Shown here one piece after another: positions 43,575 through 64,000 of a stretch of 64,000 nt of DNA. The DNA is from Anaerolineales bacterium. Its GTDB lineage: Bacteria; Chloroflexota; Anaerolineae; Anaerolineales; E44-bin32. Each line of letters starts with the position of its first letter. Position 1 is the first letter of the stretch. A program made the position numbers and the translations under genes. The notes below the pieces were generated by a model. It worked only from the letters and a program-made list of their open reading frames with translations. It was not told the DNA's origin and did not search any database. The DNA is taken from the NCBI GenBank assembly GCA_034430615.1, contig DAOUEJ010000203.1, positions 1,575-65,574 on the forward strand, in the 5' to 3' direction.

Positions 43575-43577
43575 CAA

Positions 43578-44770: not shown

Positions 44771-45178
44771 CTTGCGCTCCTCGTACAGGGATGCGGCGGA
44801 CCTGCCCAGACCTTTGAAAACCGTTTCCCTGCTTGGGTTCGATGCGAGGTGCATATCTTCGAACAGTTCGTGTTAGATCGCAACCCGGCAAAGTTGGGGT
44901 GCCGGGCGTTGTGAGGGGCCTGAACACTTACACGCGAATTACTTGTTCCCTGCCTTTCCGGCTCCGCATTCCGGCAGTTATCGTTGTGTGAGTCATAGAA
45001 GTCCGGTCGCAAAGCAGGCCGGACTCATTTGTTAATGGTGGGAGCTTTTTTTTGCGAAACCAACGCGGGCAGGTATTGTATTTGTGGATAAAAACCGAGT
45101 CACCGTATAAATGCTGGCTTGGTCTGCCCGCAAGATCTGGAAGCCTATGCGCAGTCGCAAACCGTGTGGAGTTGTCTG

Positions 45179-45505: not shown

Positions 45506-45506
45506 C

Positions 45507-46148
45507 TCAGGCTTGCCTCCCGGGGAGGCCGTTCTCCGGTGCGGGATAGCTGCGCAGAAGTTGCACGAACAGGCCAAGGCCGATCAGGATCATCACCCCC
45601 GCGACGGCTCCAAAGGTGACCGGGAAGCCGTGGTGGGTGGTAAGCCCTCTGGAAAACAACCACTCACCAACCAGCGGGGAAAGCCCAGCCAGCAAGCCAT
45701 ACAGATACAGCCGCGGTAGGTTAAGGACGTAAGCTGCAAAGCTAAACCCGAGCAAGAGCATCAGCCCAAAGGCCATCGAGGTCAATTGGCCAGGGATGGA
45801 TCTGTAGTTGAGCGCGGCAAGGATGCCCAGAACGAGAGCAAGGAGGTTCACCACAAGCATGAGAAAGCTTAATCTGCCCAGTGCGGCTCTGCGGGTTTCG
45901 CCGAAGATCACGTACCCGACACGGGGCAGAATGACGCGCTTTCGGATTTGCCGGATCGCCAGGTAAAGCAGCCCCCAGACGGGGAGGAACACCGCCGAAC
46001 TCCAGAAATCTCCCAGCCGTGCGCTGAGCAAGGGAGCAACCGAGAACATGATAAAGAAGCACCCCAGGAACATATCCCAGAGTCCATCATTGGTAGCGGT
46101 TCTAAAAACCTTCCGTTCTGCATCTTTGAGGCTGATTGGTTGAGACAC
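45507..46148 (-). CDS. polytopic membrane protein, function unknown, co-transcribed with the regulator
   Basis: 213 aa, 5-6 TM segments. GTG start with AGGAGG 7 nt upstream. Confidence 0.75.
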   Translation of the reverse strand: MSQPISLKDAERKVFRTATNDGLWDMFLGCFFIMFSVAPLLSARLGDFWSSAVFLPVWGLLYLAIRQIRKRVILPRVGYVIFGETRRAALGRLSFLMLVVNLLALVLGILAALNYRSIPGQLTSMAFGLMLLLGFSFAAYVLNLPRLYLYGLLAGLSPLVGEWLFSRGLTTHHGFPVTFGAVAGVMILIGLGLFVQLLRSYPAPENGLPGRQA

Positions 46149-46200
46149 GGGAGACCTCCTGGAGTAGTTACAATCTTGGGTTCAATGCCTTGTCTTTGTG

Positions 46201-46249
46201 TTTCAAAGTACTTTGAAATTATATTATGTCGGAAATGCCCGAATGTCAA
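46201..46249 (-). promoter_or_regulatory. sigma70-like promoter (TTGACA-17 nt-TAATAT) followed by a perfect 18-bp palindrome operator
   Basis: Minus strand reads TTGACA (46249-46244), a 17-nt spacer, TAATAT (46226-46221), then TTTCAAAGTACTTTGAAA (46218-46201) covering the expected +1. Confidence 0.5.
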
Positions 46250-46327
46250 ACGGTTGGGAGGGTGCACAGGGGAGAATCTGGGAACGAATGATGAATAGCC
46301 GCTCCCGTCGAACGCGGTGGACTATAG

Positions 46328-46352
46328 AAAAAGCCCGGTCATTAGACCGGGC
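46328..46352 (-). terminator. intrinsic terminator of the DUF937 gene
   Basis: Minus strand: GCCCGGTC-TAAT-GACCGGGC followed by TTTTT. Confidence 0.7.
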
Positions 46353-46384
46353 CAGGTTGATCGTTTAGCGATGCAGTCCTCTGG

Positions 46385-46978
46385 TTACTTTTTCCCGCCA
46401 AACAGACCGCCGAGTAGGTTCGCACCCAGGCTGATGACCTCTTCAGTCATGTCGCCGTCGCCGTCCATATCCAGGAGTCGCGCCAGGCCGGAGGTCGTCT
46501 TCTCGACCGTGTCACGCTCCTGCTGCAGCACCTGCGACACGCCCTGCGCGTCGAGCGAATTATTCTGCTGGATCTTACCGAGCGCGCCCATAACGATCGG
46601 TGCTAGGATCGCCAGCAACGTGGAGACGGCCTGGGGATCCAGCCCGCTGCCCTTGCTGACATTGCTCTCCACTGAGCCTTGTTTCTCGCCGAAGACGTGC
46701 CCCAGGATGGCCATGCCATCCTTGATCGTGTCTTTTTGTGAGACCTTCTCGATGAGGCCGTCAAGGATGCTGCCGTCGTGGTCCTGCTGCAGGGCCTGGG
46801 TCAGCGCCTGTGCGCCATCGGGCGAGGAGGCGTTGCGGTTCAGGGCGCCGATCAGCATTGGCAGCGCCAGGCCGATCGCCTGCTGCGCCTGACCGTCATC
46901 AATGCCAAGCTGGTCGCTGATCTTTGAGACCGCACCTCCGCCGAGGTGCGAAACGATAAGTTGAAGTACCGAGTCCAT
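46385..46978 (-). CDS. DUF937 family protein
   Basis: MDSVLQLIVSHLGGGAVSKISDQLGIDDGQAQQAIGLALPMLIGALNRNA plus repeated helical modules typical of DUF937. Confidence 0.8.
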   Translation of the reverse strand: MDSVLQLIVSHLGGGAVSKISDQLGIDDGQAQQAIGLALPMLIGALNRNASSPDGAQALTQALQQDHDGSILDGLIEKVSQKDTIKDGMAILGHVFGEKQGSVESNVSKGSGLDPQAVSTLLAILAPIVMGALGKIQQNNSLDAQGVSQVLQQERDTVEKTTSGLARLLDMDGDGDMTEEVISLGANLLGGLFGGKK

Positions 46979-47116
46979 GGATTAACCTGTTCCCCTTCTA
47001 GGATTTCTTGGTAGAATGCCATCCCCCAGCATCTTCAAAAGTGTATCATAGCTCGTAGGAGGAGCTGATGCCTCCCGATAAACCATGGCTTGATAAAATC
47101 GACCCAAGGAAGGCTC

Positions 47117-47596
47117 ATGGCCCAGAAGACGAATGCCATGCGTGTGCTCGATCAGGCCGGGATCTACTACCGGGTTGAGACCTATGAACTGGAAAGGGCA
47201 GACCAACTCGCCGATCGTGCGGCGAAGGCATTGGGTATCGCACCCGAGCGCATCTTTAAAACCCTGGTAGCGATCGGTGATCGGGTCGGTCCGCTTCTCG
47301 TCCTGGTCCCGGCTGGGACAGAGGTTGATCTACGCCGCCTGGCGGACGCGACCGGCAATAAGCGGGTCGATATAGCGCCACAGCGTGATGTGCTGGGGCT
47401 AACGGGTTATGAACGCGGCACAGTGACGCCGCTGGCGATGGCGAAGAGCTACCCGATCTGGATCGACGAGACGGTCGAACTGTGGGATGAAGTCGGGATC
47501 AGCGCAGGTGCGCACGGGCTCGAGATCATGCTCGTGCCAAAGGATCTGCTGCGCGTGACAGGAGCGCGGACGGCGGACGTCGCCCGCTCGCGCTAG
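47117..47596 (+). CDS. ybaK: Cys-tRNA(Pro)/Cys-tRNA(Cys) deacylase
   Basis: MAQKTNAMRVLD...Y, and the YbaK/EbsC layout with GYERGTVTPL. AAGGAAGG RBS upstream of the ATG at 47117. Confidence 0.85.
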   Translation: MAQKTNAMRVLDQAGIYYRVETYELERADQLADRAAKALGIAPERIFKTLVAIGDRVGPLLVLVPAGTEVDLRRLADATGNKRVDIAPQRDVLGLTGYERGTVTPLAMAKSYPIWIDETVELWDEVGISAGAHGLEIMLVPKDLLRVTGARTADVARSR

Positions 47597-47615
47597 GCGG
47601 TTGTTGATTTGGTTT

Positions 47616-47948
47616 TTACGCCGGGGCGCGAGCGCCCATCCAGAAGCGCGGCCAAGAACCACCGCTGCCGCGCAATGCAATAAGCGAATACAAGCTGGCG
47701 GCGAAAAAGCCCAGCACCATCACCAGCGCGATCCAGACCAACGCGCGGGGCCAGCTCGCCTCACGGTATACGATCCAGCCCGAGAAGAGCGCAAAACCCA
47801 CGTACAGATCGACCAGCGAGACGATCCCCCACGGCATCGAGAGCAGGGTCGAGCCCTCGGCCGCAAAATCTCCCTGGATAAAAGCATAGGCCAGCACGAC
47901 CCCCATGGCGGTCAGCCCCAGTCCGGCCAGCAGCGTTGCATTTCGCAT
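47616..47948 (-). CDS. DUF1475 family small membrane protein
   Basis: 110 aa, 3-4 TM segments, with ...AYAFIQGDFAAEGSTLLSMPWGIVSLVDLYVGF... Confidence 0.7.
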   Translation of the reverse strand: MRNATLLAGLGLTAMGVVLAYAFIQGDFAAEGSTLLSMPWGIVSLVDLYVGFALFSGWIVYREASWPRALVWIALVMVLGFFAASLYSLIALRGSGGSWPRFWMGARAPA

Positions 47949-48103
47949 CGTGTACTCCCTCCTAAGCGCGCCTCCGGTGAAGCGCGCCTGCAGCAGGGAT
48001 TAGACCGGACCCGGGCCGATCAGTCAAGGCTGTCACCTGGACCCCTTGTGAGGGATTGATAGCAGGTCAGGAGGTGAGCAGCCAGTGGCTCTACCGGAAA
48101 GAC

Positions 48104-48132
48104 AAAAAAGCCCCATCCGACACGGATGGGGC
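48104..48132 (-). terminator. intrinsic terminator of the Roadblock/LC7 gene
   Basis: Minus strand: GCCCCATCCG-loop-CGGATGGGGC followed by TTTTTT. Confidence 0.75.
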
Positions 48133-48165
48133 CAGGGGGGATTCGATGTGGTAGTCGTTGAAAAA

Positions 48166-48648
48166 TCAGCCTTCTTCGATGTATTTCTTAAGATCATCCG
48201 ACCGCATTAGCAGTGTGTTTGGTTCGGAAAATTTCCTTGAACTCATATCAAGTGCTTGCATTAATGCTGGTACGGCATCCTTTAGGGCGCCGAAGATCTT
48301 GTGGATCGGGGTTTTTGAGCCGTAGCCAATGCTGAGAGCAACTTCACGATTGATGCGCATCACCAACTGCTGCAGTTCGGCGCCGGCCATGAGGGTATAG
48401 CGCCATTTTCCAAAGGAGACCTCAGCCTGGGCCTTCTCTCCCATGCGCATGATGTGTGCGCTGGCTGCGATCGCTAAGTCGAGGCCGCTGCCCATGTCTT
48501 CCGGGTAATTGGCTAGGATCAGCCCGTCGTAATCCATCAGGATCGCCCAGCGGAAATCCGAGCCAGGCGCTTTTAGTATGCGCAGGGCTTCTTCCAACGC
48601 CGTCACGCGCGGATCGATGCTCGTTGTTGAATCTGAATTTGGATACAT
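48166..48648 (-). CDS. Roadblock/LC7 (MglB-like) domain protein
   Basis: The pattern ...WAILMDYDGLILANYPED...LAIAASAHIMRMGEKA...LQQLVMRINREVALSI follows the Roadblock fold. Confidence 0.65.
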   Translation of the reverse strand: MYPNSDSTTSIDPRVTALEEALRILKAPGSDFRWAILMDYDGLILANYPEDMGSGLDLAIAASAHIMRMGEKAQAEVSFGKWRYTLMAGAELQQLVMRINREVALSIGYGSKTPIHKIFGALKDAVPALMQALDMSSRKFSEPNTLLMRSDDLKKYIEEG

Positions 48649-48997
48649 CGCGTCCCCTCTACCTTATCAGTTCCAGGCCATCAGCCCTATTTTGGCATAG
48701 AACTGGATGAATGGACATTGCGAACGCTTTACAATTGCCCGCCATCTTGTGCCTACTGAGGTCCAAGCCAAGGGCCTTGTGAACTAAACGTGATCAAGGC
48801 CACTCTCCGCGTAGACGCCGCCGCGCTCGGAGGGCATTCCGAGCTCACGACCAACCCTGCAAGAAACGAACCGCTGCAGGATCCAATTTGAACGGCCGAC
48901 CTCCGGCAATGACACTTTCTGGCTGAATGGGTCGATCACCGCTTGAACCACCCCGTTGATACGAGGACCTGGATGCACTTATCTCACAGGGTCGCAG

Positions 48998-49867
48998 TTA
49001 TCGGCGGTTGACGATCACGATCCCGGACACGACCAGCATCGATCCCAAGGCCAAGTGCCAATCCAAATGCTCACCAAGGAAAATCACGCCGGCCGCGACC
49101 CCGACCACCGGGAAAAGATAGGTCACGAGCGTGGTGCGGGTTGGCCCGACCTGGTGCAGCAAATAGAAATACAGCAGGTACGCGATAAAGGATCCAAGCA
49201 GTCCCAACCAGAGCAAGGCTACCCAGGTGAGCGGCTGGGCCGGGAGGGTCAACGGATGATCGACAGCAATTGCCCCAATCCAGACCAGCAAGTCACCGCT
49301 GAGCATGGGCACAAGCGCCTGCACAAAAGTGGGCACGTTCTTTAAGGTCCTTCGTGCATACACAGAACTGGCCGCGTACGATACAGCGGCAACGACGACC
49401 GCCAGTTGTCCGAACACACCCTGGGTGACCCCGCCCTTCCCTAGGTCACGACTGAAGAGCAGCAGGATTCCGAGGAATCCAAGCACCAAGCCGGCTACCT
49501 TGGGCAAGGTCATGTTTTCGTCGGTAAGAAAGAAGTGGGCGATGATCAGGGTGAAAAGCGGCACGCTGCTGTTGAGCACTGAGGCCACGGCCGAGTCGAC
49601 GCTCTGTTCACCCCAGGTGATGAGCAAGAAGGGCAGAGCGGTGTTGGTAACACCCATTAGGATCAACCAGAACCATGTGCGCCTCGAGCGGGGAAAGGAT
49701 GGCCGGCGGATGGCAACGGCGATCGTCATCGCCAGCCACCCGAACAGCAGCCTGAACCCGACCAGGGTCAACGGGGTCAGCTCGCGCAAACCGATCTTGA
49801 TCCACAGGAAGGAACTGCCCCAGATCAATCCCAGCAGGAGGAACGCAGACCAATTCCTGGTCGTCAT
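48998..49867 (-). CDS. EamA/DMT-family transporter
   Basis: 10-TM protein with two EamA-like halves (LIWGSSFLWIKIGL...). Confidence 0.9.
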   Translation of the reverse strand: MTTRNWSAFLLLGLIWGSSFLWIKIGLRELTPLTLVGFRLLFGWLAMTIAVAIRRPSFPRSRRTWFWLILMGVTNTALPFLLITWGEQSVDSAVASVLNSSVPLFTLIIAHFFLTDENMTLPKVAGLVLGFLGILLLFSRDLGKGGVTQGVFGQLAVVVAAVSYAASSVYARRTLKNVPTFVQALVPMLSGDLLVWIGAIAVDHPLTLPAQPLTWVALLWLGLLGSFIAYLLYFYLLHQVGPTRTTLVTYLFPVVGVAAGVIFLGEHLDWHLALGSMLVVSGIVIVNRR

Positions 49868-52828: not shown

Positions 52829-53557
52829 TCAGAGAATTAGATCGTCAATCAACGATGGCAGCTGCATAAGCGAGTCGACGGTATGCTCGGGTTTGATCTC
52901 GCCAGGTTGATCGGGTTCAGCGAAGCTGCGCATCCAGATTTGATGCATGCCAACCCGTTGAGCGCCAAGGATGTCCTGGTCCAACCTGTCGCCCACCATA
53001 ACGACCTGCTCCGGCTCATGCTGCCAATGCTCCAGAATCTGCAGAAAAGGACCGGGTGCAGGTTTGCGTGAGCCGATGGCAGCTGAGATCAGGATCGGAT
53101 CGAAGAAACTGCGGATGCCAACCTTATCGATCAATCGTTGGACATTGGCTTCATCAGCTGCATTGGATAACAGGCCCAGGCGCAGACCCCGGCGCTGCAG
53201 GATGTTGAGGGTCATCTCAAGTCCCGGAACACCTACCCAGTGCTGTTCTGTGACTGCGTACATACGCTCCAGCGCGAACGCGACCACTTGCGGATCGACT
53301 CCATCGATTCCCACCGAGGCCAGCGCATCACCCAGCACCGCCCGCGTCGTGTGTTCGACATGATCGCCAAGGCGGTTCCGTTGGTACTCCTGCATACGCC
53401 CGGCGAACTCGCCGATCAGATCCTGTCTTCCCCAGTCTACGCCGGTCTCGTGCAGCGCCCCTTCCAGCGCCGCCAAGCTTTCTGGCCATACACTTTCCCA
53501 CTCGCCATCGAAGCGAATCAAGGTTGACCCGAGATCGAAGATGATGCCCTCAATCAT
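52829..53557 (-). CDS. HAD-superfamily hydrolase
   Basis: IIFDLGSTL (motif I with Gly in place of the second Asp), LLSNA, and MVGDRLDQDILG. Confidence 0.8.
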   Translation of the reverse strand: MIEGIIFDLGSTLIRFDGEWESVWPESLAALEGALHETGVDWGRQDLIGEFAGRMQEYQRNRLGDHVEHTTRAVLGDALASVGIDGVDPQVVAFALERMYAVTEQHWVGVPGLEMTLNILQRRGLRLGLLSNAADEANVQRLIDKVGIRSFFDPILISAAIGSRKPAPGPFLQILEHWQHEPEQVVMVGDRLDQDILGAQRVGMHQIWMRSFAEPDQPGEIKPEHTVDSLMQLPSLIDDLIL

Positions 53558-53572
53558 TACGCCTGATCCGGT

Positions 53573-54610
53573 TCAATAGCCGCGCTGTGGATCATAAACA
53601 TTGAGCAGGGGCCGGTCAGAAAGGTAGCGCTGAAGGTTCTGACAGAAGAGACCCACAGCACGTTCAAGATAATGAGGGGATGCACCCGCTAGGTGTGGAG
53701 ATAGCATCACGTTCGGCATCTCCCACAAAGGGCTGCTCTCAGGCAGGGGTTCAACCGGGAATACATCCAGGGCAGCGCCAGCCAGGCGTCCGCCGCGCAG
53801 CGCCTCTACCAGCGCTCCGTGGTCGACGACGCCCCCACGCGAGATGTCGATCAGGTAGGCCGTGCTCTTCATCGCTTTCAGGATCTCGGTGTTGACCATG
53901 CCCTGTGTCTTTGGCGTGAGCGGGACGCAGATCACGAGGAAGTCACACAGCGGCACCATCGTGCGCAAAGCCTCGGGAGGGTAGATGCGGTCTGGAAGAT
54001 CTGCCGACGGGTCGCCCAACCCCTCCGGTAGGTAGCCGGGGTCCTGGAGTTGCATCAGGTTCAGTTTCGTGGCGAGTAGATTGGCGCCGAATTGTTTGCA
54101 CAATCGACCGATCTCCCGCCCTATGCTTCCATACCCAACGATTCCGACCGTACTCCCGCGCAGTTCCGTTGGCTGGAAACGGGTGTAGCGGCCATCCGCC
54201 CATTGTTCTGCGGGTTTGCTGCGTAGGGTTTCTGGAGCCTTGTGTCCAAGGGCGAGCATGCTCATCAACGCGAACTCCGCCATCTGTGGCGCGGATGCAC
54301 CGCTCATCGTTGTGAAAACCACATCGGCTGAGAGCAGTGGGTTTCCGTTGAAGTGATCCAGCCCAGCATAGTGAATCTGGACCCAGCGCAGGTTGGGCAC
54401 CTGGTCTGGCTCCGGCAGTGCGGCGATGGTGTAGAGCACCTCGGCTTGATTGAGCAAATCTTCAGGGATAGCAGCCGCATCCCGCGCCTGGGTGATATGC
54501 AGCTTGAGATCGGGCGAGACCGCCTGGATACGATCCAAGAGCGGCTGTGGAAAGGTCATGGTTAGGAGCAGGTGAATCTTGCGCTCGCTGCGTTCCGTCA
54601 TGCGGCCCAT
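53573..54610 (-). CDS. D-isomer-specific 2-hydroxyacid dehydrogenase
   Basis: The NAD fold GIVGYGSIGREIG, plus the catalytic R/E/H layout (ISRGGVVD..., SPHLAG). Confidence 0.9.
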   Translation of the reverse strand: MGRMTERSERKIHLLLTMTFPQPLLDRIQAVSPDLKLHITQARDAAAIPEDLLNQAEVLYTIAALPEPDQVPNLRWVQIHYAGLDHFNGNPLLSADVVFTTMSGASAPQMAEFALMSMLALGHKAPETLRSKPAEQWADGRYTRFQPTELRGSTVGIVGYGSIGREIGRLCKQFGANLLATKLNLMQLQDPGYLPEGLGDPSADLPDRIYPPEALRTMVPLCDFLVICVPLTPKTQGMVNTEILKAMKSTAYLIDISRGGVVDHGALVEALRGGRLAGAALDVFPVEPLPESSPLWEMPNVMLSPHLAGASPHYLERAVGLFCQNLQRYLSDRPLLNVYDPQRGY

Positions 54611-54688
54611 TGTACATCACTCTCGAGCGACTGCCATGCGGCCGGTAGGCTATACTGGGTGAGGAGAGATAGCCCCGGAGGGGTATTC

Positions 54689-55561
54689 ATGGAGTACGGT
54701 GCAGTTTTTCCCCAAACCGACCTTGAAGCCGAGCCGGAAGGTATCCTGAGATTTGCCCGGGACCTTGAGCAGCAAGGGTTCAACCACATCCTGGCCTACG
54801 AACATGTGCTGGGTGTGGATTCTGATCACATCAGCGGATCACGTGGTCCTTATACGCTTGAGCACCCGTTCCTATCACCTTTCGTGGTATTTGCCTTCAT
54901 GGCGGCTGTGACAAGCCGAATCGAATTTGCCACAGGGATCTTGATCCTGCCCCAACGCCAGACAGCGCTTGTTGCCAAGCAAGCCGCCACACTGGATCGA
55001 TTGAGCGGTGGCCGACTGCGGCTGGGTGTCGGGATCGGGTGGAATGAGGCCGAGTACATTGCTCTTGGGAAGAACTTCCACGATCGTGGAAAGCGCAGCG
55101 AGGAACAGATTGAGATCCTGAGAGCGTTATGGACTCAATCCAGCATCTTCTATCAGGGCGAGTGGCACACTCTTCCTTACGTCGGCCTTAACCCCGGGCC
55201 GGTCCAGCAGCCGATCCCGATCTGGATCGGCGGCGGCGCGGATGCGGTCCTGCGGCGTGCGGCGCGGCTGGCAGATGGCTGGATGCCAAACTACCGCCAG
55301 GCCGATCAGGCCATCCCTTCCCTCGACCGTCTCGCATCCTATCTTGAGGAAGCAGGCAGGGAGCCCGGATCGTTTGGGATTGAAGCCCGGATCCGATACG
55401 CCGATGGAGACCTCGAGTCGATCGAAGAAAGCCTGCGGGCGTGGCAAGAGGCCGGTGCGACGAAGGTTTCCCTCAACACAATGGGCTGTGGTTTTAAAAC
55501 CGTGGATGAACACCTGGGCGCCTTCCAAGCGTTCGCCCGAGCCTTTATCCCATCCCCTTAG
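54689..55561 (+). CDS. luciferase-like (LLM class) oxidoreductase, probably F420-dependent
   Basis: TIM-barrel LLM pattern (...LSGGRLRLGVGIGWNEAEY...). The ATG at 54689 is preceded by GGAGG. The ORF-track extension overlaps the divergent gene. Confidence 0.8.
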   Translation: MEYGAVFPQTDLEAEPEGILRFARDLEQQGFNHILAYEHVLGVDSDHISGSRGPYTLEHPFLSPFVVFAFMAAVTSRIEFATGILILPQRQTALVAKQAATLDRLSGGRLRLGVGIGWNEAEYIALGKNFHDRGKRSEEQIEILRALWTQSSIFYQGEWHTLPYVGLNPGPVQQPIPIWIGGGADAVLRRAARLADGWMPNYRQADQAIPSLDRLASYLEEAGREPGSFGIEARIRYADGDLESIEESLRAWQEAGATKVSLNTMGCGFKTVDEHLGAFQAFARAFIPSP

Positions 55562-55885
55562 CGAAACCAAGATTTGCCAGGCAATTCCGGGAAGCGAAGG
55601 AGTTTCCCTTCCCTGCGTGACTTCCTGCCTCCGGTGGGGTTACCACATACGATGCGCAAGCCTTTCATTACGAGCAGGCTGTCCACAAACGGCTGCGCAG
55701 AAATGTAATTTCAGGTCAGGACATCGTCCATTGTTCGCAAATGTTGGTTGGTGAGCATTTGCGAGCCGCACCCTCCACCCCTGGCCGCCTCGAAAGGAGG
55801 GAGACTGCCCCTGATCACGACTCCGTCCAATTCACATTCGAACCATCGGCAACCCATCTAGAATTTGAGCCAAGGAGAGAGATAC

Positions 55886-57226
55886 ATGGATACGACCAAG
55901 GGACGGATGGGTTACCTCCCTAATGACCAACCGCCATTCGGACAATTGATCCTGCTGGGTTTCCAGCATGTCCTGACGATGTTCCCGGCGACGGTCTTTG
56001 TAGCCCTGTTCACCGGTTTCCATACGAGCACAGTTCTGTTTGTCGCAGGTATGGCGACCATCGTCGCGCTCGTGCTTTCCAAATGGCGCATTGGAAAATT
56101 TATCCCCCTCTTTTATGGGTCCAGTTTTAGCTACATGGCGGCTTACCTGGCGCTCACCAACGCTGAATGGGGCGTACCAGCCTCGGATGCCACATTGAGC
56201 GTGATCCAGGCCGGCATCCTCGTGACAGGTTTGGTCAACATCGCCGTTGGCTTCATCATCCGCTGGGTGGGCAAGGACGCTATCGATAAGGTCCTTCCTC
56301 CGGTTGTCACAGGCTCGGTTGCGGCCGTCATCGGCTTCGCCCTCGGTTTTGCGGCACTTGGTATGGCTGAAGCGCATTGGGGCGTTGCCATCATCACCCT
56401 CTTCGTCACGGTTATGTTCTCGGTCTACCTGCAGGGGCGAGGCTTCATCGGCATGCTGCCTGTCCTTCTGGGAGCGATTGTGGGCTATCTTATCGCCTGG
56501 GGTGTTGGGCTGGTGGACTTTTCCCCGATCGCGCAGCACGCGCTGATCGAGGTGCCGCACTTCACCTTCCCCGGCTTTACAGGCGCACTCGTTGGACAGG
56601 CGATTATCAGCGTCGCGATCATGGCTATCGCCACCATCCCCGAATCGACCGCCCACCTGTACCAGATCAGCCTGTACGTCGATCGCTTTGCCGAGGAGAC
56701 CGGGCGTGAGAAGTACCATCTCGATGAGTACCTTGGCTTCAACCTGATCTTGGATGGCATCGGCGATTTCATCAACGGGCTCTTTGGCTCAACGGCCGGG
56801 ACGAACTACGGTGAGAACAACTCGTTGATGGCGATTACGCTTAACTACTCCGGCCCAGCGCTCATCGCGGCCGGGGCAATCTCCATGCTGCTCGGGTTCG
56901 TCGGAAAATTAACCGGTTTGCTGCAGACAGTACCTCTGGCAGTGAGCGGTGGGCTGGCGATCTACCTGTTCGGCGTTATCGGCATGCAGGGCGTGGCCTT
57001 GATGGTCGAACACAAGGTCAACTTGTTCGATCCGAGAACGCTGGCGGTGGGTGCGACGATCATGGTCATCGGCATCGGTGGCCACATCGGCTACCCGAAT
57101 GGGCTGATGCCGATCAATGCGCTGACCGGCGTTTTCCCCAATGGCTGGCCGGCGATCGCCACCGGCGCCGTTGCCGGGATCCTGCTTAACGCAGTTTTCC
57201 TGATCTTCAAACCAAGCAACAAGTAA
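55886..57226 (+). CDS. NCS2-family nucleobase (uracil/xanthine-type) permease
   Basis: ...LGFQHVLTMFPATV... and ...ESTAHLY...NYGENNS motif regions. AAGGAGAGAG RBS. Confidence 0.9.
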   Translation: MDTTKGRMGYLPNDQPPFGQLILLGFQHVLTMFPATVFVALFTGFHTSTVLFVAGMATIVALVLSKWRIGKFIPLFYGSSFSYMAAYLALTNAEWGVPASDATLSVIQAGILVTGLVNIAVGFIIRWVGKDAIDKVLPPVVTGSVAAVIGFALGFAALGMAEAHWGVAIITLFVTVMFSVYLQGRGFIGMLPVLLGAIVGYLIAWGVGLVDFSPIAQHALIEVPHFTFPGFTGALVGQAIISVAIMAIATIPESTAHLYQISLYVDRFAEETGREKYHLDEYLGFNLILDGIGDFINGLFGSTAGTNYGENNSLMAITLNYSGPALIAAGAISMLLGFVGKLTGLLQTVPLAVSGGLAIYLFGVIGMQGVALMVEHKVNLFDPRTLAVGATIMVIGIGGHIGYPNGLMPINALTGVFPNGWPAIATGAVAGILLNAVFLIFKPSNK

Positions 57227-57324: not shown

Positions 57325-58284
57325 TTAGTCTACGGGGGAAGCGAGCCGGAGCGTACCGAGCACGAATCCACTGACCGCGTCTTCGCCAGAGGTATGGCCC
57401 ACCGCGAGCAGCGTATCGAGGGCAGCATCGATCTCTTCAGGATCGCCCTCCACGCAGGCCATGAGCAGCCCGTGCCAGTATGCGGCCGCTTCACCCCGTG
57501 CAGCGGCTCGGATGTGTGCGGCGGGGAACAACCCCGTGCGCGGGGCTGCGGCCTTTTCCAGTACACCGCACAGCGCTTTCGCCTCGCTGGATTTGAACAT
57601 TGACCATATCGCATACATCAAGCCCACCAGGAAGTCGTCACCGCTCGGTGTAAGCCCGATCCCAAGCCCGGCCAGCCTGGCCGCGCCCTGCCCCAGTTTG
57701 CGCCCATCCCGGAAGGCGAGACCGTCCATTAGAATCTTGATGGGTGCGGCTGCCTTCGTCCACCATGGCGATCGGGCACCCTGCCAGGCTGCAGCTGGAT
57801 TGTCGATTAGTGCAGCAAGCCCATCCGCCGACCGGTCTTGCAGCAGTTGCTCCTCGATCTGAGAGAGCCAACCTGAGGCGCGGCTCAAAGCAGCACGAAT
57901 CGCTCCCCAATCGGGGCAACTGGTCCAGAGTTCGGCGTCGTTGATCGACACCCGCAGCACGCCAACCCTGATCTCATCGGATGTGATCTTGACCGGGCTA
58001 TCGGCGTCGAGATACCCGGTGAAACTATCCCAGGCGGGATGGCGCTCAAGAGCGATGGCGAACGGATCCATTTGCCCGGGATCAAGGATCAGCGAGAGGA
58101 TCTTGTCTTGATCATCGATAAGATTGCAGGTGGTCTTGAATACATGTAGGATCCGGGATGTGCGCCCTTGCTGGAGCAAGGTCAGCGCGCCCGGGGCAAC
58201 TGATATTGCACGGAGATTGATCTCTACCTCCGGCAGCTCTAGCGACGGGTTTCCTTGCCGATCATCAAAGTGGGATTTACTCAC
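57325..58284 (-). CDS. DUF2877 / AllH (YlbF)-like protein
   Basis: GLGIGLTPSGDDFLVGLMYAI and LLAVGHTSGEDAVSG, as in E. coli YlbF-type proteins. Confidence 0.8.
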   Translation of the reverse strand: MSKSHFDDRQGNPSLELPEVEINLRAISVAPGALTLLQQGRTSRILHVFKTTCNLIDDQDKILSLILDPGQMDPFAIALERHPAWDSFTGYLDADSPVKITSDEIRVGVLRVSINDAELWTSCPDWGAIRAALSRASGWLSQIEEQLLQDRSADGLAALIDNPAAAWQGARSPWWTKAAAPIKILMDGLAFRDGRKLGQGAARLAGLGIGLTPSGDDFLVGLMYAIWSMFKSSEAKALCGVLEKAAAPRTGLFPAAHIRAAARGEAAAYWHGLLMACVEGDPEEIDAALDTLLAVGHTSGEDAVSGFVLGTLRLASPVD

Positions 58285-59194
58285 CGGTTTTCAGATTCAC
58301 TTGCTCATGCAAGAACTCGAGGAAGGTCCTGGGTGGACGCCCGAGCAACCCTCCCAGAACACGCGAGTTTCCCCAGAAACCGTGTTGCGCATAGTACTCG
58401 AACATCTTCAGCAGAGTCTCAATCTGGTAGCGGCTCATACCAGACTGCTGTGCCTGTCGTTCCCAGGCGACTCGATCGATTTCAATCACCTGCACGGGTT
58501 TGTCCAGGACTTTACCGATTGCCGAGGCTGCCCGGGCCGGGGTCCAGGTTTCACCGGAAGATAACTCGTAGGTAGCCCAGAAGTGCTCCGGCCTGCCAAG
58601 AACGAATCCCGCTGCGCAAGCGACGTCTTCCAGATCGACCATGCCTAGTTTTGAGTCCGCTGGATAGGGTACCGGGAAGATACCTTCGGTACGGGCCGAG
58701 GCCAAGCCTGGAAGGAAATTCTGCATGTAGGCTTCCGGCTGCAGGATCGTAAAGGGAAGCCCGCTGGCGTAGATCCGCTCTTCCACCTTGGCCTTTTTGA
58801 TGTGGTGGGGCATCGCCTGAACGTAGGGGTGGAGCACAGAGTGGTATACGAAGTGGCCGACGGCATGCTGATCAGCGAGGCGAAGCACGTTCTCTCCGAT
58901 CTCGACTTCCTGTGGGTGGATGTTGGGTGGGATGTGGTAGATGCTGGAAATGCCGCGGAAAGCCGATTCGAGCGAACCCGGATCGAGCAGATCACCGGGG
59001 CAGGCTTCGCTGGCCCCGGACTGGAGAGCGATGGGGATCTGTTCTGCGCGGCGAACGAGAGCCCGGCAGGAGCGCTCCTGCCGGGCAAGCTCGCGTAGGA
59101 GCGCTAACCCGGTCTTGCCAGCCGCGCCAGTGACCAGGATCACGATCAGTCTCCGCGTGTGCGAGCCGGGTATTGCTCCCGGTTCAAGCCCCAA
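58277..59194 (-). CDS. NmrA-like NAD(P)-binding (atypical SDR) protein
   Basis: ILVTGAAGKTGLALLREL Rossmann motif. Overlaps the next gene by 8 nt. Confidence 0.85.
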   Translation of the reverse strand: MGLEPGAIPGSHTRRLIVILVTGAAGKTGLALLRELARQERSCRALVRRAEQIPIALQSGASEACPGDLLDPGSLESAFRGISSIYHIPPNIHPQEVEIGENVLRLADQHAVGHFVYHSVLHPYVQAMPHHIKKAKVEERIYASGLPFTILQPEAYMQNFLPGLASARTEGIFPVPYPADSKLGMVDLEDVACAAGFVLGRPEHFWATYELSSGETWTPARAASAIGKVLDKPVQVIEIDRVAWERQAQQSGMSRYQIETLLKMFEYYAQHGFWGNSRVLGGLLGRPPRTFLEFLHEQVNLKTGE

Positions 59195-59195
59195 T

Positions 59196-61535
59196 TCATC
59201 CGGAGCGGGCCAGGTTGATCAGTTCCCAGAGCCGGCTCGGGCTGAGCGGGATCTCGAGCAGCTCGAGACCTTCGATCTGGAGCGCATTCTCGAGCGCCTG
59301 GCAGAAAAGCGGTCCAACTGGAATTGCGCCAGCCTCGCCCGCACCCTTCACCCCAAGTGGATTGAGGGGAGAGGGTGTCTCCTTGTGACCGATCTCGATC
59401 CTGGGGACATCCAGCGAGGTTGGCAGCAGGTAGTCCATGAAGGTCCCGTTGAGCAGCTGCCCGTTCTCGTCGAAAACCAAATGCTCGTAGTAGGCGTTGC
59501 CTATCCCCTGGGCTATACCACCCTGAACTTGGCCATCGATCAGGAGCGGGTTGATCACCTTGCCGGCGTCGTGGACGGCGATGTACTTCTGGATGTTGAT
59601 CATCAGCGTCTCTGGATCTACTTCCACGATCATGGCGTGTACGCCGTTGGCCGTCGCCCCTGTCGCCGGGCCGAAGTAGTTGGTGGACTCGAGCCCGGGC
59701 TCCGTGCCTGGCTTAACGGCCCCACGCAGCGGGTTGGCCTGGGCTGCCAGTTCCCCGAGAGCGATCCCGCGTTCGGGTTCGTTCTTCACGTACACCCGGC
59801 CGCCTTGAAGCTCAAGCGCCTCCTGCTCGACCTCGAACATCTCAGCCGCCAAGGCGAGGATCTTATAACGGACATCCTTGGCGGCCTCGTTGATCGCGTT
59901 GCCAGCAACCACCGTCCCCCGGCTGGCGAAGGTCCCGGTCCCCCAATGGAACTGGTCAGTGTCACCCGTGACGACGTAGATTTCGCTGACCTCCACGCCC
60001 AGTTGTTCGGCTGCGATCTGGGCGAAACTGGTGAAATGTCCCTGGCCCTGGGTGCCGACCCCGGTGACAACCGAGATTTTTCCGCTTGGCTGCACCTGCA
60101 CCCGAGCTCCTTCGTAGGGGCCGATGCCGGTGCCTTCCACGTAGGTGACGACGCCGATGCCGACGTGCCGGCCTTCGGCGCGCAGCCTGGGCTGTGTCTC
60201 CGTGATGAAGTCCTCGTACCCAATCATCTCCAACGCTTTTGCCAGGACCGGTTCGTAGTTGCCGCTGTCGTAGACCAGCGAGGTGAAGTCTTGGTAGATG
60301 ATCTTGTTGTCCTTGGGGAAGGCATCAGTCGGGATGAAATTGCGGCGGCGGATCTCGGTCGGGTCGAGGCCTAGTTCGTTGGCTGCCAGGTCCAACAGGC
60401 GTTCCATGACAAACACGCCGTGCTGGCGGCCGGCGCCGCGGTACGGGGTCACGATCATCTTATTTGTGAAGACGGCCTTGAACTCGCTGTAGTAATTGGG
60501 GATGTCGTAGCAGCCCAGCAGCGTGCACTGGCTGTTGATGGGAACCGTCAGGCCGTAGGGGTCGTAGGCTCCGCTGTCGTGCAAGAAGACGTCGTGGATG
60601 CCGAGGATGCGGCCATCTTTGTCCAGGGCTATTTCGGCTTCATGGATCTGGGATCGTTCTTGGGTGGTGGCGACGAAGTTCTCGGCTCGGTCCTCAATCC
60701 ATTTCATTGGCCGATGGTACTTGATCGAGAGCCAGGGCAGGAGCATCTCCTCCGGGTAGAACATCATGATTTTAGGTCCGAATGCACCCCCGATGAAGGG
60801 TGCGACAACCCGCACCTGGTGCTCGCTCAAGCCAAGCATGGTAGCCAGACCGTTCCGGATGGGGATCGGCGCCTGGGTGGTATCCCAAACCGTCAAGCGC
60901 TGCGATTTTGGATCCCAGTGCGCGACGATGCCCCGGTTTTCCATGGCGGCCGCGGCCCCGTGATCGTACGTGAAGCAGCGGCGGATGATGTGATCGGCTG
61001 ACTGGCGCACCTGCTCATAGTCCCCGATCTCCTGGATCACGTGGGCAGCCAGGTTGGTTTCAAGATCTTCATGGATCGGTATCGTCTCCGGGTCAAGAGC
61101 ATTCTCAAGGTCGGCGACAACCGGCAGTGGTTCGTAATCCACAATGATGCGGGCCACCGCATCCTCGGCGATGTAGCGGTCTTCGGCGATGACGGCGGCC
61201 AGCGGTTCACCTACGTGGCGAACCCTATCCTGGGCCAGGATCGGCTGGGTACGTGCGTTAAAGATTAGGCGTTCGATCGGCGGAGGTGAGACCAGCAGTG
61301 GTCCCCTGGTCCAGTACTCCCCCAGGCTTTCTGCGGTGTGGATATCGATCACACCCGGTATCTCGAGGGCGGCGGAGACATCAATTTTCAGGATGCGCGC
61401 ATGTGCGTAAGGACTGCGTAGGAAGGCGATGTGCGCCATGTTCGGCAGGTGCACATCGTCAACAAAGAGCGCTTGCCCAGTCAGCAGGCGTGCGTCTTCG
61501 TTGCGTGGGATTCTCTTGCCTATATATTGTCCCAT
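59196..61535 (-). CDS. xanthine dehydrogenase/aldehyde oxidase-family molybdopterin-binding large subunit (CoxL-like)
   Basis: 779 aa. N-terminus GKRIPRNEDARLLTGQALFVDD, the loop PYRGAGR, and the C-terminus NPLGVKGAGEAG. Confidence 0.93.
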   Translation of the reverse strand: MGQYIGKRIPRNEDARLLTGQALFVDDVHLPNMAHIAFLRSPYAHARILKIDVSAALEIPGVIDIHTAESLGEYWTRGPLLVSPPPIERLIFNARTQPILAQDRVRHVGEPLAAVIAEDRYIAEDAVARIIVDYEPLPVVADLENALDPETIPIHEDLETNLAAHVIQEIGDYEQVRQSADHIIRRCFTYDHGAAAAMENRGIVAHWDPKSQRLTVWDTTQAPIPIRNGLATMLGLSEHQVRVVAPFIGGAFGPKIMMFYPEEMLLPWLSIKYHRPMKWIEDRAENFVATTQERSQIHEAEIALDKDGRILGIHDVFLHDSGAYDPYGLTVPINSQCTLLGCYDIPNYYSEFKAVFTNKMIVTPYRGAGRQHGVFVMERLLDLAANELGLDPTEIRRRNFIPTDAFPKDNKIIYQDFTSLVYDSGNYEPVLAKALEMIGYEDFITETQPRLRAEGRHVGIGVVTYVEGTGIGPYEGARVQVQPSGKISVVTGVGTQGQGHFTSFAQIAAEQLGVEVSEIYVVTGDTDQFHWGTGTFASRGTVVAGNAINEAAKDVRYKILALAAEMFEVEQEALELQGGRVYVKNEPERGIALGELAAQANPLRGAVKPGTEPGLESTNYFGPATGATANGVHAMIVEVDPETLMINIQKYIAVHDAGKVINPLLIDGQVQGGIAQGIGNAYYEHLVFDENGQLLNGTFMDYLLPTSLDVPRIEIGHKETPSPLNPLGVKGAGEAGAIPVGPLFCQALENALQIEGLELLEIPLSPSRLWELINLARSG

Positions 61536-61581
61536 CGATGCCCTCCGTGTTTTATGGATCAGAAATCATGTACAACCCTTA

Positions 61582-62367
61582 CTATTCCTCGGTGAAGGCC
61601 ACGGCTCGGCAGAAGGCAGCCTCGCCGCCCTTGAAGAGCCACGGGAAGCAGCCCAGGGTTAACCGGCGATTTTGAAGTTCGGGCGCCCCGATCATCCCGC
61701 CCAGGTTCTCGACGTGGATGCAGTCGTGCGGGAAGAGGGCGTTATGGGTTAGTTGGTAGGCCATCTCCGGGAACAATTCGGGGACTTTGTCCTTACCGAA
61801 CTTCGCCTCACATTGTGCGGTCACCTTCTGCCACTGCTCGAGTCCACCTTTGCCGAGAAAGCGGCCGATCGGCAGGTTCATGGGGTGGTCGGTCGAGATC
61901 ATGTCTACGCCCCAGATGTGGATCTTCTTCTCCAGAAGCCAATCGACGATCTCGAAATGCGGACCTGGGTGACGGAGGATATATTTTTCCTCGTCTGGCT
62001 TGGAGCCGAACTGCGCATGCTTATGCCAGCCAGTGTGGATGTAAAGAATATCACCCTCACGTACCTCGACTCGCTCCTCGATCATGGCCGGGGTGAAGAT
62101 GTCCAGTTCATCGAGCACGTCACTCAAATCAACGATCACCCCCTCGCCGTACAGCCATTCCAGCGGGATTTGATCGATGGTCTTCCCACCGGTGACGAAA
62201 TGGCGCGGCGCATCGAGGTGCGTACCCATGTGGTTGGAGGTCTGAATATATTGCGCATTCACACCCTGCTCTGCCTTGCGCTTGATAAACTTCACCTCGA
62301 AGGGCGGGTAGAACGGCCAGTTGGGAGCGTCCTGGTTTAGTGGTTGTGAGAGGTCGTGGATCTTCAT
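61582..62367 (-). CDS. cyclase-family protein (kynurenine formamidase-like metal hydrolase fold)
   Basis: HMGTHLDAPRHF motif. The ATG at 62367 has GGAGGAA 6 nt upstream. Confidence 0.88.
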   Translation of the reverse strand: MKIHDLSQPLNQDAPNWPFYPPFEVKFIKRKAEQGVNAQYIQTSNHMGTHLDAPRHFVTGGKTIDQIPLEWLYGEGVIVDLSDVLDELDIFTPAMIEERVEVREGDILYIHTGWHKHAQFGSKPDEEKYILRHPGPHFEIVDWLLEKKIHIWGVDMISTDHPMNLPIGRFLGKGGLEQWQKVTAQCEAKFGKDKVPELFPEMAYQLTHNALFPHDCIHVENLGGMIGAPELQNRRLTLGCFPWLFKGGEAAFCRAVAFTEE

Positions 62368-62451
62368 GATTTCCTCCATGCTTGATAAGCGAACGGTTTC
62401 GTGGATAAAATATCTGCTCGACGGCGCGGGCTGTTACCCACGCCAGAGCAT

Positions 62452-63693
62452 TTACAACCCGTAGGTCTCGGCAAAGGCGACCAATGCCTGCTCAAAGATC
62501 TCCATAGGGGGACGGACAAGCCCGGCCCCCACCTGCCCGACCCCGGCATCTTTGTGTGCGATCCCCGTATTTACCCGCGGGGCAATACCCAGCTCGACAA
62601 CCTTGCGAATGTCGATGCCCGTCGGTGTGCCGCGGAAATCGAGCGGCGGGATGCTGAAATGGCTGTGTTCGGCGACTGTGATCTCGTACATCTCAAGCGT
62701 GGCGTTGAGCGCATCCTGGGGGGTGCCACTGACGAAGGTGACGATGGCCGGTGCGGAGGCCATGGCAAAGCCGCCGATCCCGGCGGTTTCGGTGATGGTG
62801 CTGTCGCCGATGTCCGCGTTTGCATCCTCGCTTGAGTAGCCTGGAAAGTAGAGACCGTCCGGGATTTGTGCCGGAGCCGTGAACCAGCGATCACCCAATC
62901 CGCTGACCCGGATCCCGAAATCGGTGCCGTTACGTGCCATCGCTGTCACCAGGGTCGAGCCTTCGACACCGTGGGCGGCATCGGCCATGGCCTTGCAGGC
63001 CGCCATGACGGGGTTGAGCACGCTCAGTGCGTTATCCCCCAGGAACGCAAGCACTTCCGCCTTGACAGTATCCGAGACTTTCGCTCGCGCAATGGCCGGC
63101 GCCAGTTGTTTCAAGTATAGGAGGGAACCGGCCTTGTTGCGGTTGTGGCCTTCATCGCCCATGTGCAGGGCCTCGGCTAGCAGCGCCCGCATGTCGATGC
63201 CCTCAATGGATGTCAGGGCTTCCTCGAGCACCGGAGCCATGGTGTCGTTCATCCATCTCAGTTTTGAGATGACCTCCGGACTGAAAGCGCCATACCGCAG
63301 CACCTTGCCATAGCCCTCGTTCAGATTGGAGTAGGCATGGTTCTCGCCTTCGACATTATCAATCACGTAGACCGCCATAGAGGCTGAGATTACACCGGCC
63401 ATCGGGCCGACCGAGCTGTGGTGATGGCAGGGCTCAAAGGCGATCTCGCCGCTGGCGGCCAACTCACGGGCCTGGGACTCATTCTCTGCCAGTCCCTCGA
63501 AGATCAACGCCCCAATCACCGCTCCGCGCAGTGGGCCCGACATGCGCTCCCACTCGATCGGTGGACCTGCATGCAGCAGGAGATTATCCCGCATGCCGGG
63601 GATGACCTCGCGCGCCGTGGCGATGCCGGTAAGCATCGGCCGGGCGGTGATCATGCGTTCAACGGCGATCTGATTGGCTGCATCAATATCCAT
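62452..63693 (-). CDS. DUF1116 / AllG (YlbE)-like protein
   Basis: ...LLHAGPPIEWERMSGPLRGAVIGALIFEGLA...FEPCHHHSSVGPMAGV...NLNEGYGKVLRYGA..., closely following my memory of E. coli YlbE. Confidence 0.85.
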   Translation of the reverse strand: MDIDAANQIAVERMITARPMLTGIATAREVIPGMRDNLLLHAGPPIEWERMSGPLRGAVIGALIFEGLAENESQARELAASGEIAFEPCHHHSSVGPMAGVISASMAVYVIDNVEGENHAYSNLNEGYGKVLRYGAFSPEVISKLRWMNDTMAPVLEEALTSIEGIDMRALLAEALHMGDEGHNRNKAGSLLYLKQLAPAIARAKVSDTVKAEVLAFLGDNALSVLNPVMAACKAMADAAHGVEGSTLVTAMARNGTDFGIRVSGLGDRWFTAPAQIPDGLYFPGYSSEDANADIGDSTITETAGIGGFAMASAPAIVTFVSGTPQDALNATLEMYEITVAEHSHFSIPPLDFRGTPTGIDIRKVVELGIAPRVNTGIAHKDAGVGQVGAGLVRPPMEIFEQALVAFAETYGL

Positions 63694-63700
63694 ATTTCGC

Positions 63701-64000
63701 TCAACCTTTCTTTACTGGTTCGTCTTGGTCCCCTGCTTGCTGTGAGGATTTAATCCTGCTCAGGATCCCTATCAGTCTCTCATTCCCGCCCGCAGGCGGG
63801 CGCCAGTCGACCTGGATTGACGCAGCGCCCTGGGAAAGAAGGCTGTCATAAAACGATTCGAGCCCAATGTTGATCGCCGCCACGGGCGCAGCGAGCGCGG
63901 TCGTGGAGATGGCTGGCTGATCCTGCTCCGTGGAATCGCCCAGCAGCGCAACGGCATAGGCCACCAGGCTGATCGTGTCGGTGACCACTTTTGCGCCGGC
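63701..64000 (-). CDS. C-terminal part of an FdrA / AllF-like (succinyl-CoA-synthetase-alpha fold) protein, truncated by the window edge
   Basis: The frame is open to position 64000. The tail ...INIGLESFYDSLLSQGAASIQVDWRPPAGGNERLIGILSRI resembles the FdrA C-terminus. It ends 7 nt before the DUF1116 gene. Confidence 0.65.
   Translation of the reverse strand, partial: AGAKVVTDTISLVAYAVALLGDSTEQDQPAISTTALAAPVAAINIGLESFYDSLLSQGAASIQVDWRPPAGGNERLIGILSRIKSSQQAGDQDEPVKKG

Follow-up and report, generated by a model that had tools for sequence, protein, structure and literature searches.

A conserved Chloroflexota operon joining AllFGH-type genes to a molybdenum hydroxylase and a cyclase-fold hydrolase, with a possible role in pyrimidine base catabolism

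The operon and its boundaries

The window analysed here is a 64,000-nucleotide (nt) stretch of DNA from an Anaerolineales bacterium (GenBank assembly GCA_034430615.1, contig DAOUEJ010000203.1, positions 1,575 to 65,574 of the forward strand), the end of which (57325-64000) carries six co-directional genes on the minus strand. The listing of open reading frames (ORFs) and profile scans agree on the order FdrA-like, DUF1116, cyclase family, CoxL-like, NmrA-like and DUF2877 that was reported in a preliminary description of this DNA, with the nucleobase permease said to be convergent with the operon being found as an NCS2 permease on the plus strand. These genes very probably form part of one conserved catabolic unit, in which a molybdenum (Mo) hydroxylase and a cyclase-fold ring-opening hydrolase would feed a carbamoyl-phosphate-forming step of the AllF-AllG-AllH (AllFGH) type. 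The features are as follows.

57325-58284, minus strand: allH (DUF2877 subunit), 319 amino acids; PF11392 79.5 bits (cut-off 25)
58277-59194 (ORF; likely gene 58277-59143), minus strand: NmrA-like NAD(P)-binding reductase, 288 amino acids; PF05368 96.7 bits
59196-61535, minus strand: coxL-type molybdopterin large subunit, 779 amino acids; PF01315, PF02738 and PF20256
61582-62379 (ORF; likely gene 61582-62367), minus strand: cyclase-fold PF04199 metal-dependent amidohydrolase, 261 amino acids; PF04199 136 bits
62452-63693, minus strand: allG (DUF1116 subunit), 413 amino acids; PF06545 319.5 bits (cut-off 27)
63701-64000, minus strand: 3′ end of allF (FdrA-like, C-terminal 98 amino acids), the gene running past the window edge
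55865-57226 (ORF; feature 55886-57226), plus strand: NCS2/NAT permease, uracil-permease-like, 446 amino acids; PF00860
57255-57282, no strand: perfect 12-bp hairpin (loop of 4 nt), within the 98 nt that separate allH from the convergent permease gene

The earlier account of the junctions stands for the 7-nt gap between allF and allG, the 46-nt gap between the cyclase gene and coxL and the 8-nt overlap of nmrA with allH, while the gap between allG and the cyclase gene, previously given as 72-84 nt, settles at 84 nt with the most likely cyclase start at ATG 62367, which has GGAGG in front of it. The 1-nt gap between coxL and nmrA does not hold, NmrA most likely starting at GTG 59143, which has a GGAG Shine-Dalgarno sequence, agrees with the gene call and places the Rossmann motif at the N-terminus, such that the gap is likely 52 nt. 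A scan for promoters and terminators gave counts at chance level, the sole features of note being the hairpin that follows allH and a promoter-like site between the divergent genes. The hairpin is likely a bidirectional terminator, a role that stays provisional because no T-run follows it.

The exact AllG protein was found on a 180-kb contig of the Chloroflexota metagenome-assembled genome (MAG) GCA_964599805.1, which is identical to the locus and extends it (related loci are labelled L and a number, this one being L001). Upstream on the same strand lie full-length allF, a gene for an amidase-signature amidase, coxS (2Fe-2S subunit) and coxM (FAD subunit), such that the operon is longer than six genes and the rest of fdrA/allF, coxS and coxM, which the preliminary description proposed to look for past position 64000, are in place together with the amidase.

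L001:8272-9993, same strand as the operon: full-length allF, 573 amino acids
L001:5426-6800, same strand as the operon: coxM and coxS

Divergent from the operon on L001 are genes for a family-III CoA-transferase and a thiolase-domain protein, followed by a CoxG-like protein and a lactate-permease-family transporter. In keeping with the preliminary description, no carbamate kinase, allantoinase or ureidoglycolate gene was found, either in the window or over another 9.7 kb of L001, nor do the flanks of L001 hold a canonical allantoin regulon that would make the operon a variant of a familiar one.

Conservation across Chloroflexota

In a scan of one genome per species the cyclase was encoded at more than 560 places, with the best 80 used for counts of related loci; the operon proteins were searched by tblastn and loci of at least 15 kb (n = 50) are termed long. 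The best 120 database homologues of the cyclase are at least 77% identical to it, and across the best 80 loci identity is 77-93%. These loci are nearly all from Chloroflexota (Anaerolineales, Caldilineales, Thermomicrobiales and others), with a few from MAGs labelled Zixibacteria, Bacillota or Symbiobacteriaceae. A haloarchaeal origin, hinted at by some NCBIfam matches with 'Halo' in their names, was rejected because the homologues and related loci bear Chloroflexota names.

At least four of AllF, AllG, CoxM, CoxS and CoxL are encoded beside the cyclase in 40 of the 50 long loci, the cyclase standing on its own in only four, while AllG is immediately upstream of it in 45 of 63 loci. The gene order takes at least three forms: coxM-coxS-amidase-allF-allG-cyc-coxL-(nmrA/deaminase)-allH in the Anaerolineales type, allF-allG-cyc-coxM-(dinB)-coxS-coxL in the Caldilineaceae type and, in the Thermomicrobium type, carbamate kinase-allG-allF-allH divergent from coxM-coxS-coxL-cyc-cyc2. 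Because of this recurrence, and in several gene orders, the association of the cyclase with AllF, AllG and CoxM/S/L is far beyond chance. The linkage survives rearrangement, and the conserved core is therefore AllF, AllG, the cyclase and CoxM/S/L. Conservation of the neighbourhood in relatives, on which the preliminary description had let its reading depend, is thus strong.

NmrA, AllH and the amidase are lineage-specific accessories, the amidase being found in 27 of the 80 loci and NmrA in 12, while AllH was detected by profile search in 22 loci (19 of them among the 80) and nowhere within 10 kb in Caldilineaceae-type loci. The preliminary description had hydroxylation, ring opening and reduction feeding a carbamoyl-transfer step; reduction is not among the core steps, as NmrA is only an accessory. 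The median identity to the window proteins is 81% for the cyclase, 73% for AllG, 71% for CoxS, 70% for CoxL, 56% for CoxM, 55% for the amidase, 53% for AllF, 47% for NmrA and 34% for AllH.

The constraint on the cyclase is unusual for a small hydrolase, since in the same operons (L004-L083) in which it is 77-93% identical AllF ranges from 44 to 73% and AllH from 26 to 45%. One possible reason is that the cyclase forms a complex with AllG, which ranks second in conservation. Two Thermomicrobium MAGs (L036:10758-11654 and L034) encode a second PF04199 paralogue (41-43% identical) directly 3′ of the conserved cyclase, followed by a Zn-dependent alcohol dehydrogenase. At one further locus (L085, the same as L029) the cyclase occurs without AllFG or CoxLMS, adjoining tandem moeA genes and a molybdate/tungstate-type ABC transporter.

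Encoded enzymes, transporters and accessory genes

The metal motif of the cyclase, HxGTHxDxPxH, is invariant in 27 homologues. An AlphaFold2 (AF2) model of moderate quality had a predicted local distance difference test score (pLDDT) of 75, was poor around the metal motif and served for fold assignment only; its structural matches are all PF04199 proteins, among them isatin hydrolases and kynurenine formamidases, with 16-23% identity. The cyclase thus shares its fold and metal site with isatin hydrolase, which also opens a cyclic amide, and with kynurenine formamidase, but it forms a very tightly conserved subfamily of its own. Assignment as a kynurenine formamidase (arylformamidase) was rejected, the score against TIGR03035 being 62.7 bits and far under the cut-off of 223.05 although the metal motif is kept. 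A tblastn search with an AtzD-family protein found no AtzD/barbiturase gene in any of the 80 loci or in the window, which is consistent with the replacement of barbiturase by the cyclase. Matches for the cyclase and DUF1116 on Rhodococcus plasmids were set aside as lying in unrelated contexts (Rieske oxygenases, glutamine-synthetase-like genes).

CoxL, CoxS and CoxM together make up a complete Mo/FeS/FAD hydroxylase. The active-site loop of CoxL, PYRGAGR, is of the form II type and the catalytic Glu lies in GAGEAG, with the nearest PDB relatives being CoxL, quinoline 2-oxidoreductase (Qor) and 6-hydroxypseudooxynicotine dehydrogenase (420-520 bits to the CoxL and Qor structures). As in the form II CoxL/quinoline 2-oxidoreductase group the enzyme has a three-subunit L/M/S architecture and a YRGAGR loop, but its genomic partners match those of no characterised member. 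CoxL falls below every NCBIfam cut-off. Xanthine dehydrogenase was rejected on the curated XdhA, PucD and XdhB scores (431.6 against 780, 302 against 784 and 237 against 850 respectively), as was form I Mo-CO dehydrogenase, for which the loop should read (A/S)YRCS(F/L)R and the TIGR02416 score reaches 544 of the 991 needed. That CoxLMS is nonetheless a (form II) carbon monoxide dehydrogenase with functionally unrelated neighbours is what a public JGI name would suggest, a near-identical CoxL in the same 90% cluster being called 'carbon-monoxide dehydrogenase large subunit', and the top NCBIfam match is CODH_aero_grp5. At 887.8 bits this match lies under its cut-off of 950, the loop is not that of form I enzymes and CO oxidation by form II enzymes is itself unresolved (PMC13240472). 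The tight, rearrangement-proof linkage of CoxLMS with the cyclase and AllF/AllG argues for a single pathway, and a carbon monoxide dehydrogenase is highly improbable.

Full-length AllF passes the NCBIfam FdrA model PRK06091 (508.9 bits against a cut-off of 433), the fragment in the window covering model positions 475-554 of 555, contains PF27530 (HMA_AllF_N) and PF00549 (Ligase_CoA) and scores 325 bits to the E. coli FdrA structure 3DMY. AllG gives 434.6 bits to PDB entry 3CLQ, is 50-53% identical to the E. coli ylbE and yahG products and is 58-89% identical in the related loci. AllH has two invariant motifs, GLGxGLTPSGDD (206-217) and GHTSGxD (296-302), and its AF2 model (pLDDT 91.7, predicted template modelling score 0.90) shows a beta domain at the N-terminus and an all-alpha domain at the C-terminus; the model has no structural match in the PDB (best Foldseek E 0.31). 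Both AllH motifs are glycine-rich and resemble phosphate- or nucleotide-binding loops. About 180 enterobacterial plasmids carry yahF/yahG-type FdrA/DUF1116 genes, the second E. coli paralogue set of allFG, indicating that such genes are widely mobilised.

In E. coli purified AllF-AllG-AllH is an oxamic transcarbamylase that catalyses oxalurate + Pi <-> carbamoyl phosphate + oxamate (Kim and Kim, 2024; PMC11326118), a class unrelated to aspartate and ornithine transcarbamylases (ATCase and OTCase) and encoded with a catabolic carbamate kinase (PMC11326118). As in E. coli allFGHK, all three subunit families are present and intact in the operon, and a carbamate kinase lies in the cluster of four related loci (L025, L033, L036 and L048). 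In L048 the order on one strand is carbamate kinase-coxM-coxS-amidase-allF-allG-cyc-coxL-allH-dihydropyrimidinase. The differences are several. As described earlier the trio is split, with the cyclase gene, coxL and nmrA between allG and allH. Genes for a Mo hydroxylase and a cyclase-fold hydrolase belong to the same operon, the carbamate kinase is missing from the window and L001, and AllH is dispensable or distant in many relatives. Unlike the E. coli genes, which are placed with the oxalurate-supplying allantoin/ureidoglycolate genes allECD, they have none of these on L001 or among the recurrent neighbour families of the 80 loci. Lastly, the substrate proposed below is ureidomalonate rather than oxalurate.

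Among solved structures the amidase comes closest to malonamidase E2 (36% identity over 385 amino acids, E 2e-50), with the Ser-cisSer-Lys triad kept; it also matches relatives of allophanate hydrolase, AtzE and biuret hydrolase. Malonamidase Arg158 is conserved and was tried as a specificity marker, yet it does not discriminate because it forms part of the general amidase-signature GGS(I/V)R motif. The CoA-transferase gene divergent from the operon is present in 12 of the 80 loci, with a second arrangement in L024, and its product has dicarboxylate CoA-transferases as top matches.

The permease is closest to uracil permease among the NCBIfam models, though at 211 bits it stays below the cut-off of 477, and its best PDB match is UraA (E 1e-42, against 4e-13 for SLC23). 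Alignment to 3QE7 finds Glu241, His245 and Glu290 of UraA all conserved, which we take to be the uracil-binding residues. An orthologue (65-69% identical) adjoins the cluster in six related loci. Other pyrimidine-type genes recur. A cytosine-deaminase-like amidohydrolase is encoded inside the operon between coxL and allH in L019, L022, L028 and L077, sharing or taking over the slot of NmrA, while 18 related loci encode a dihydropyrimidinase that clears the TIGR02033 cut-off (593.5 against 393.25) and 19 a CN-hydrolase, both being inserted between the cyclase gene and coxM in L030 and L072. Neither a dihydropyrimidinase nor a beta-ureidopropionase-type hydrolase of the reductive pathway is present in the window or L001 (dihydropyrimidine dehydrogenase was not searched for). 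NMT1-type ABC transporters were found in six of the 80 loci and on the Caldilineaceae contig L086.

The families of CoxL and the cyclase raise the question of a non-nucleobase N-heterocycle of the nicotinate, picolinate or quinoline type, for which the Mo enzyme would hydroxylate the ring, the cyclase would be a formamidase or deformylase, the amidase would act on a maleamate-type amide and FdrA/DUF1116 would be CoA-ligase-like. This reading could call on quinoline 2-oxidoreductase and the nicotine-pathway dehydrogenase among the solved relatives of CoxL, on the kynurenine formamidases within PF04199 and on the succinyl-CoA-synthetase-alpha-like fold of FdrA. Nevertheless it is very unlikely, as the recurrent families of the loci include no ring-cleaving dioxygenase or monooxygenase, the linked transporters and accessory genes are of nucleobase/pyrimidine type, carbamate kinase is linked in four loci and purified AllFGH had transcarbamylase activity (PMC11326118).

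The remainder of the window is housekeeping DNA (GatCAB, glutamate dehydrogenase, succinate dehydrogenase, an ECF transporter) and unrelated to the operon. Next to the permease are genes for an F420-dependent LLM-class oxidoreductase (54572-55561, plus strand; TIGR03619 274.9 against 166.9), a D-2-hydroxyacid dehydrogenase (53573-54610, minus strand) and a HAD hydrolase (52829-53557, minus strand); synteny of this trio is confined to the closest relatives (L002, L004 and partly L022) and it is not counted in the pathway. A tRNA-Arg(CCT) gene lies at 43501-43575, and 44850-49000 holds short ORFs only (up to 213 amino acids), contrasting with the rest of the window.

A possible route of pyrimidine base catabolism

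The gene content, domain integrity, conservation and co-location described above are direct observations; every substrate and reaction is inferred from genomic context and homology. A pyrimidine is the most likely substrate, ahead of purine and allantoin derivatives, and the more specific model, that the operon serves pyrimidine base catabolism (uracil or thymine, which cytosine would feed in some relatives), has about an even chance of being right. In this model the UraA-like permease would import the base and CoxL/CoxM/CoxS would oxidise C6 of uracil or thymine to barbiturate or 5-methylbarbiturate, the long-known reaction of uracil/thymine dehydrogenase. The cyclase would open the ring to ureidomalonate (3-oxo-3-ureidopropanoate), replacing the unrelated barbiturase. 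Since ureidomalonate (H2N-CO-NH-CO-CH2-COO-) is the one-carbon-longer homologue of oxalurate (H2N-CO-NH-CO-COO-), AllF-AllG-AllH is proposed to act on this N-acylurea, which would be split with Pi to carbamoyl phosphate and malonamate by analogy with the E. coli oxalurate reaction. The malonamidase-like amidase would convert malonamate to malonate and NH3, with the divergent dicarboxylate CoA-transferase and thiolase then taking malonate into CoA metabolism. Carbamoyl phosphate would pass to carbamate kinase (giving ATP, NH3 and CO2) or into biosynthesis, and the NmrA-like reductase would have an accessory role only.

According to a later summary, the oxidative pyrimidine pathway of Rhodococcus and others runs from uracil or thymine via barbiturate and 3-oxo-3-ureidopropanoate to urea and malonate, using uracil/thymine dehydrogenase, a barbiturase of the AtzD family and ureidomalonase (Soong et al., 2001/2002, summarised in PMC3758960). 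The proposed route has the first two intermediates and the end product malonate in common with it. It differs in that a PF04199 hydrolase stands in for the AtzD/barbiturase family and in that the acylurea would be split by phosphate to carbamoyl phosphate and malonamate rather than hydrolysed to urea and malonate.

The operon might instead follow the classical hydrolytic route, with ureidomalonate made by the cyclase or a different hydrolase, the amidase as a ureidomalonase releasing urea and malonate and AllFG(H) handling a side product or having a non-transcarbamylase activity. Such a ureidomalonase would complete the known pathway; the known ureidomalonase is itself a member of the amidase-signature family, and the matches to allophanate hydrolase, AtzE and biuret hydrolase relatives are to enzymes of ureido-type amides. 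We consider this quite unlikely, given that the amidase is missing from most Caldilineaceae- and Thermomicrobium-type loci, in which AllF and AllG are nearly always present, that malonamidase is its closest solved relative and that the occurrence of carbamate kinase in four clusters argues for carbamoyl phosphate as the product.

Comparable clusters occur outside the Chloroflexota. Plasmid pSR8 of Aminobacter sp. SR38 (L092, NZ_CP062120.1 59842-73654) has the order hypothetical protein (454 amino acids)-fdrA-DUF1116-cyanuric acid amidohydrolase-carbamate kinase-cytosine-deaminase-like amidohydrolase-BMP ABC transporter-DUF2877. As in the operon, FdrA and DUF1116 are followed by a ring-opening amidohydrolase in exactly the slot of the cyclase, with DUF2877 at a distance and a cytosine-deaminase-like gene present. 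In contrast to the cyclase, the ring-opener passes the cyanuric acid amidohydrolase equivalog and belongs to the AtzD family, of unrelated fold; a carbamate kinase is present, and a Mo hydroxylase is missing, as cyanuric acid does not have to be hydroxylated. This suggests an undescribed carbamoyl-phosphate-yielding route after cyanuric acid ring opening, by phosphorolysis of carboxybiuret or biuret. FdrA/DUF1116/DUF2877 modules also lie, with carbamate kinase, beside xanthine permeases in Peptoclostridium and adjoin triuret/biuret genes in Nitrospira (PMC12625717). By analogy, the common denominator of these modules may be a cyclic ureide that is opened to an N-acylurea and then split with phosphate by an AllFGH-type enzyme.

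Haloarchaeal megaplasmids (Halostagnicola, Halorussus and Haloarcula; L087, L088 and L090) encode a cyclase homologue that is about 40% identical beside a CoxM/G/S/L-type hydroxylase and XdhC, together with cytosine deaminase (459 against a cut-off of 438), codB, NCS2 permeases and a Zn-dependent alcohol dehydrogenase. As in the operon, the genes for the cyclase homologue and a Mo hydroxylase lie together among genes for taking up and deaminating pyrimidines, but a CocE/NonD hydrolase and a dihydropyrimidinase-like amidohydrolase are found instead of AllF/AllG, and the cluster may be an archaeal hydrolytic counterpart of the pathway.

The variety of these modules also bears on whether the same architecture could act on another cyclic ureide, such as a purine-derived or imidazolidine precursor of oxalurate (parabanate or 5-hydroxyhydantoin, for instance), an s-triazine-like ring or a modified pyrimidine of the thiamine type. 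Oxalurate/oxamate is the sole proven substrate pair of AllFGH, and the Peptoclostridium, Aminobacter and Nitrospira modules are linked to xanthine, cyanuric acid and triuret/biuret genes. The NMT1-type binding proteins of Caldilineaceae-type loci point the same way, as NMT1/THI5-like proteins also serve thiamine pyrimidines. Against this, uricase, allantoinase and allantoicase are not among the families that recur in the 80 loci, the recurrent amidohydrolase scores 593 bits as a dihydropyrimidinase and 266 as an allantoinase (cut-off 357.85), CoxL misses the xanthine dehydrogenase cut-offs by a wide margin (431.6 against 780) and the permease is UraA-like rather than xanthine-type. Moreover, Mo hydroxylases attack sp2 C-H bonds, of which hydantoin C5 has none. 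Another cyclic ureide is thus an unlikely substrate.

Several points weigh against catabolism of uracil or thymine by the scheme set out above. We know of no PF04199 enzyme, in the PDB or otherwise, that acts on barbiturate, and the closest solved relatives of the cyclase are about 20% identical. CoxL is under all curated cut-offs, its nearest relatives acting on CO, quinoline or nicotine derivatives, and a literature search found no reference sequence or paper naming a uracil/thymine dehydrogenase gene. Neither the window nor its flank encodes a carbamate kinase, and Caldilineaceae-type loci have no AllH within 10 kb, though E. coli needs all three subunits. Pyrimidine-type accessory genes of any kind occur in only 27 of the 50 long loci. 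The scheme has no place for dihydropyrimidinase and CN-hydrolase, which are enzymes of the reductive route. The amidase could itself be a ureidomalonase, making AllFGH redundant. Finally, the haloarchaeal CoxL is only 30% identical to that of the window, and the haloarchaeal parallel is therefore carried by the cyclase only.

The cluster is real, widely conserved and undescribed, a full-text literature search having found no paper that describes this arrangement, which the preliminary description likewise did not recognise as a known pathway. The broader proposal of that description, of a distinct pathway for an N-heterocycle or ureido compound, feeding a carbamoyl-transfer-type step, is supported by the conserved neighbourhood, the lack of an allantoin regulon and the carbamate kinase genes of four relatives. 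The parts come from known families and the proposed intermediates from a known pathway, with the enzyme set and the phosphorolytic step being new. That the operon encodes a form of oxidative pyrimidine catabolism not known before, one that proceeds by phosphorolysis and could yield ATP, is a tentative proposal, with rather less than an even chance of being correct.

If this is true, the orphan uracil/thymine dehydrogenase would gain its first genes, closing a 70-year-old gap, and a function would be assigned to a clade within the 'form II CoxL' group, which is routinely mistaken in metagenomes for a potential to oxidise CO. The proposal would likewise mean that barbiturase evolved independently on the cyclase fold, by non-homologous replacement, and that ureidomalonate is a second physiological substrate of the AllFGH class. 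This class would then comprise general N-acylurea phosphorylases that follow ring-opening amidohydrolases and recover carbamoyl phosphate, and hence ATP, from cyclic ureides. Hundreds of Chloroflexota species, in soils, sediments and wastewater, carry the cluster, and the pathway would therefore bear on the recycling of nucleobase nitrogen by abundant heterotrophs.

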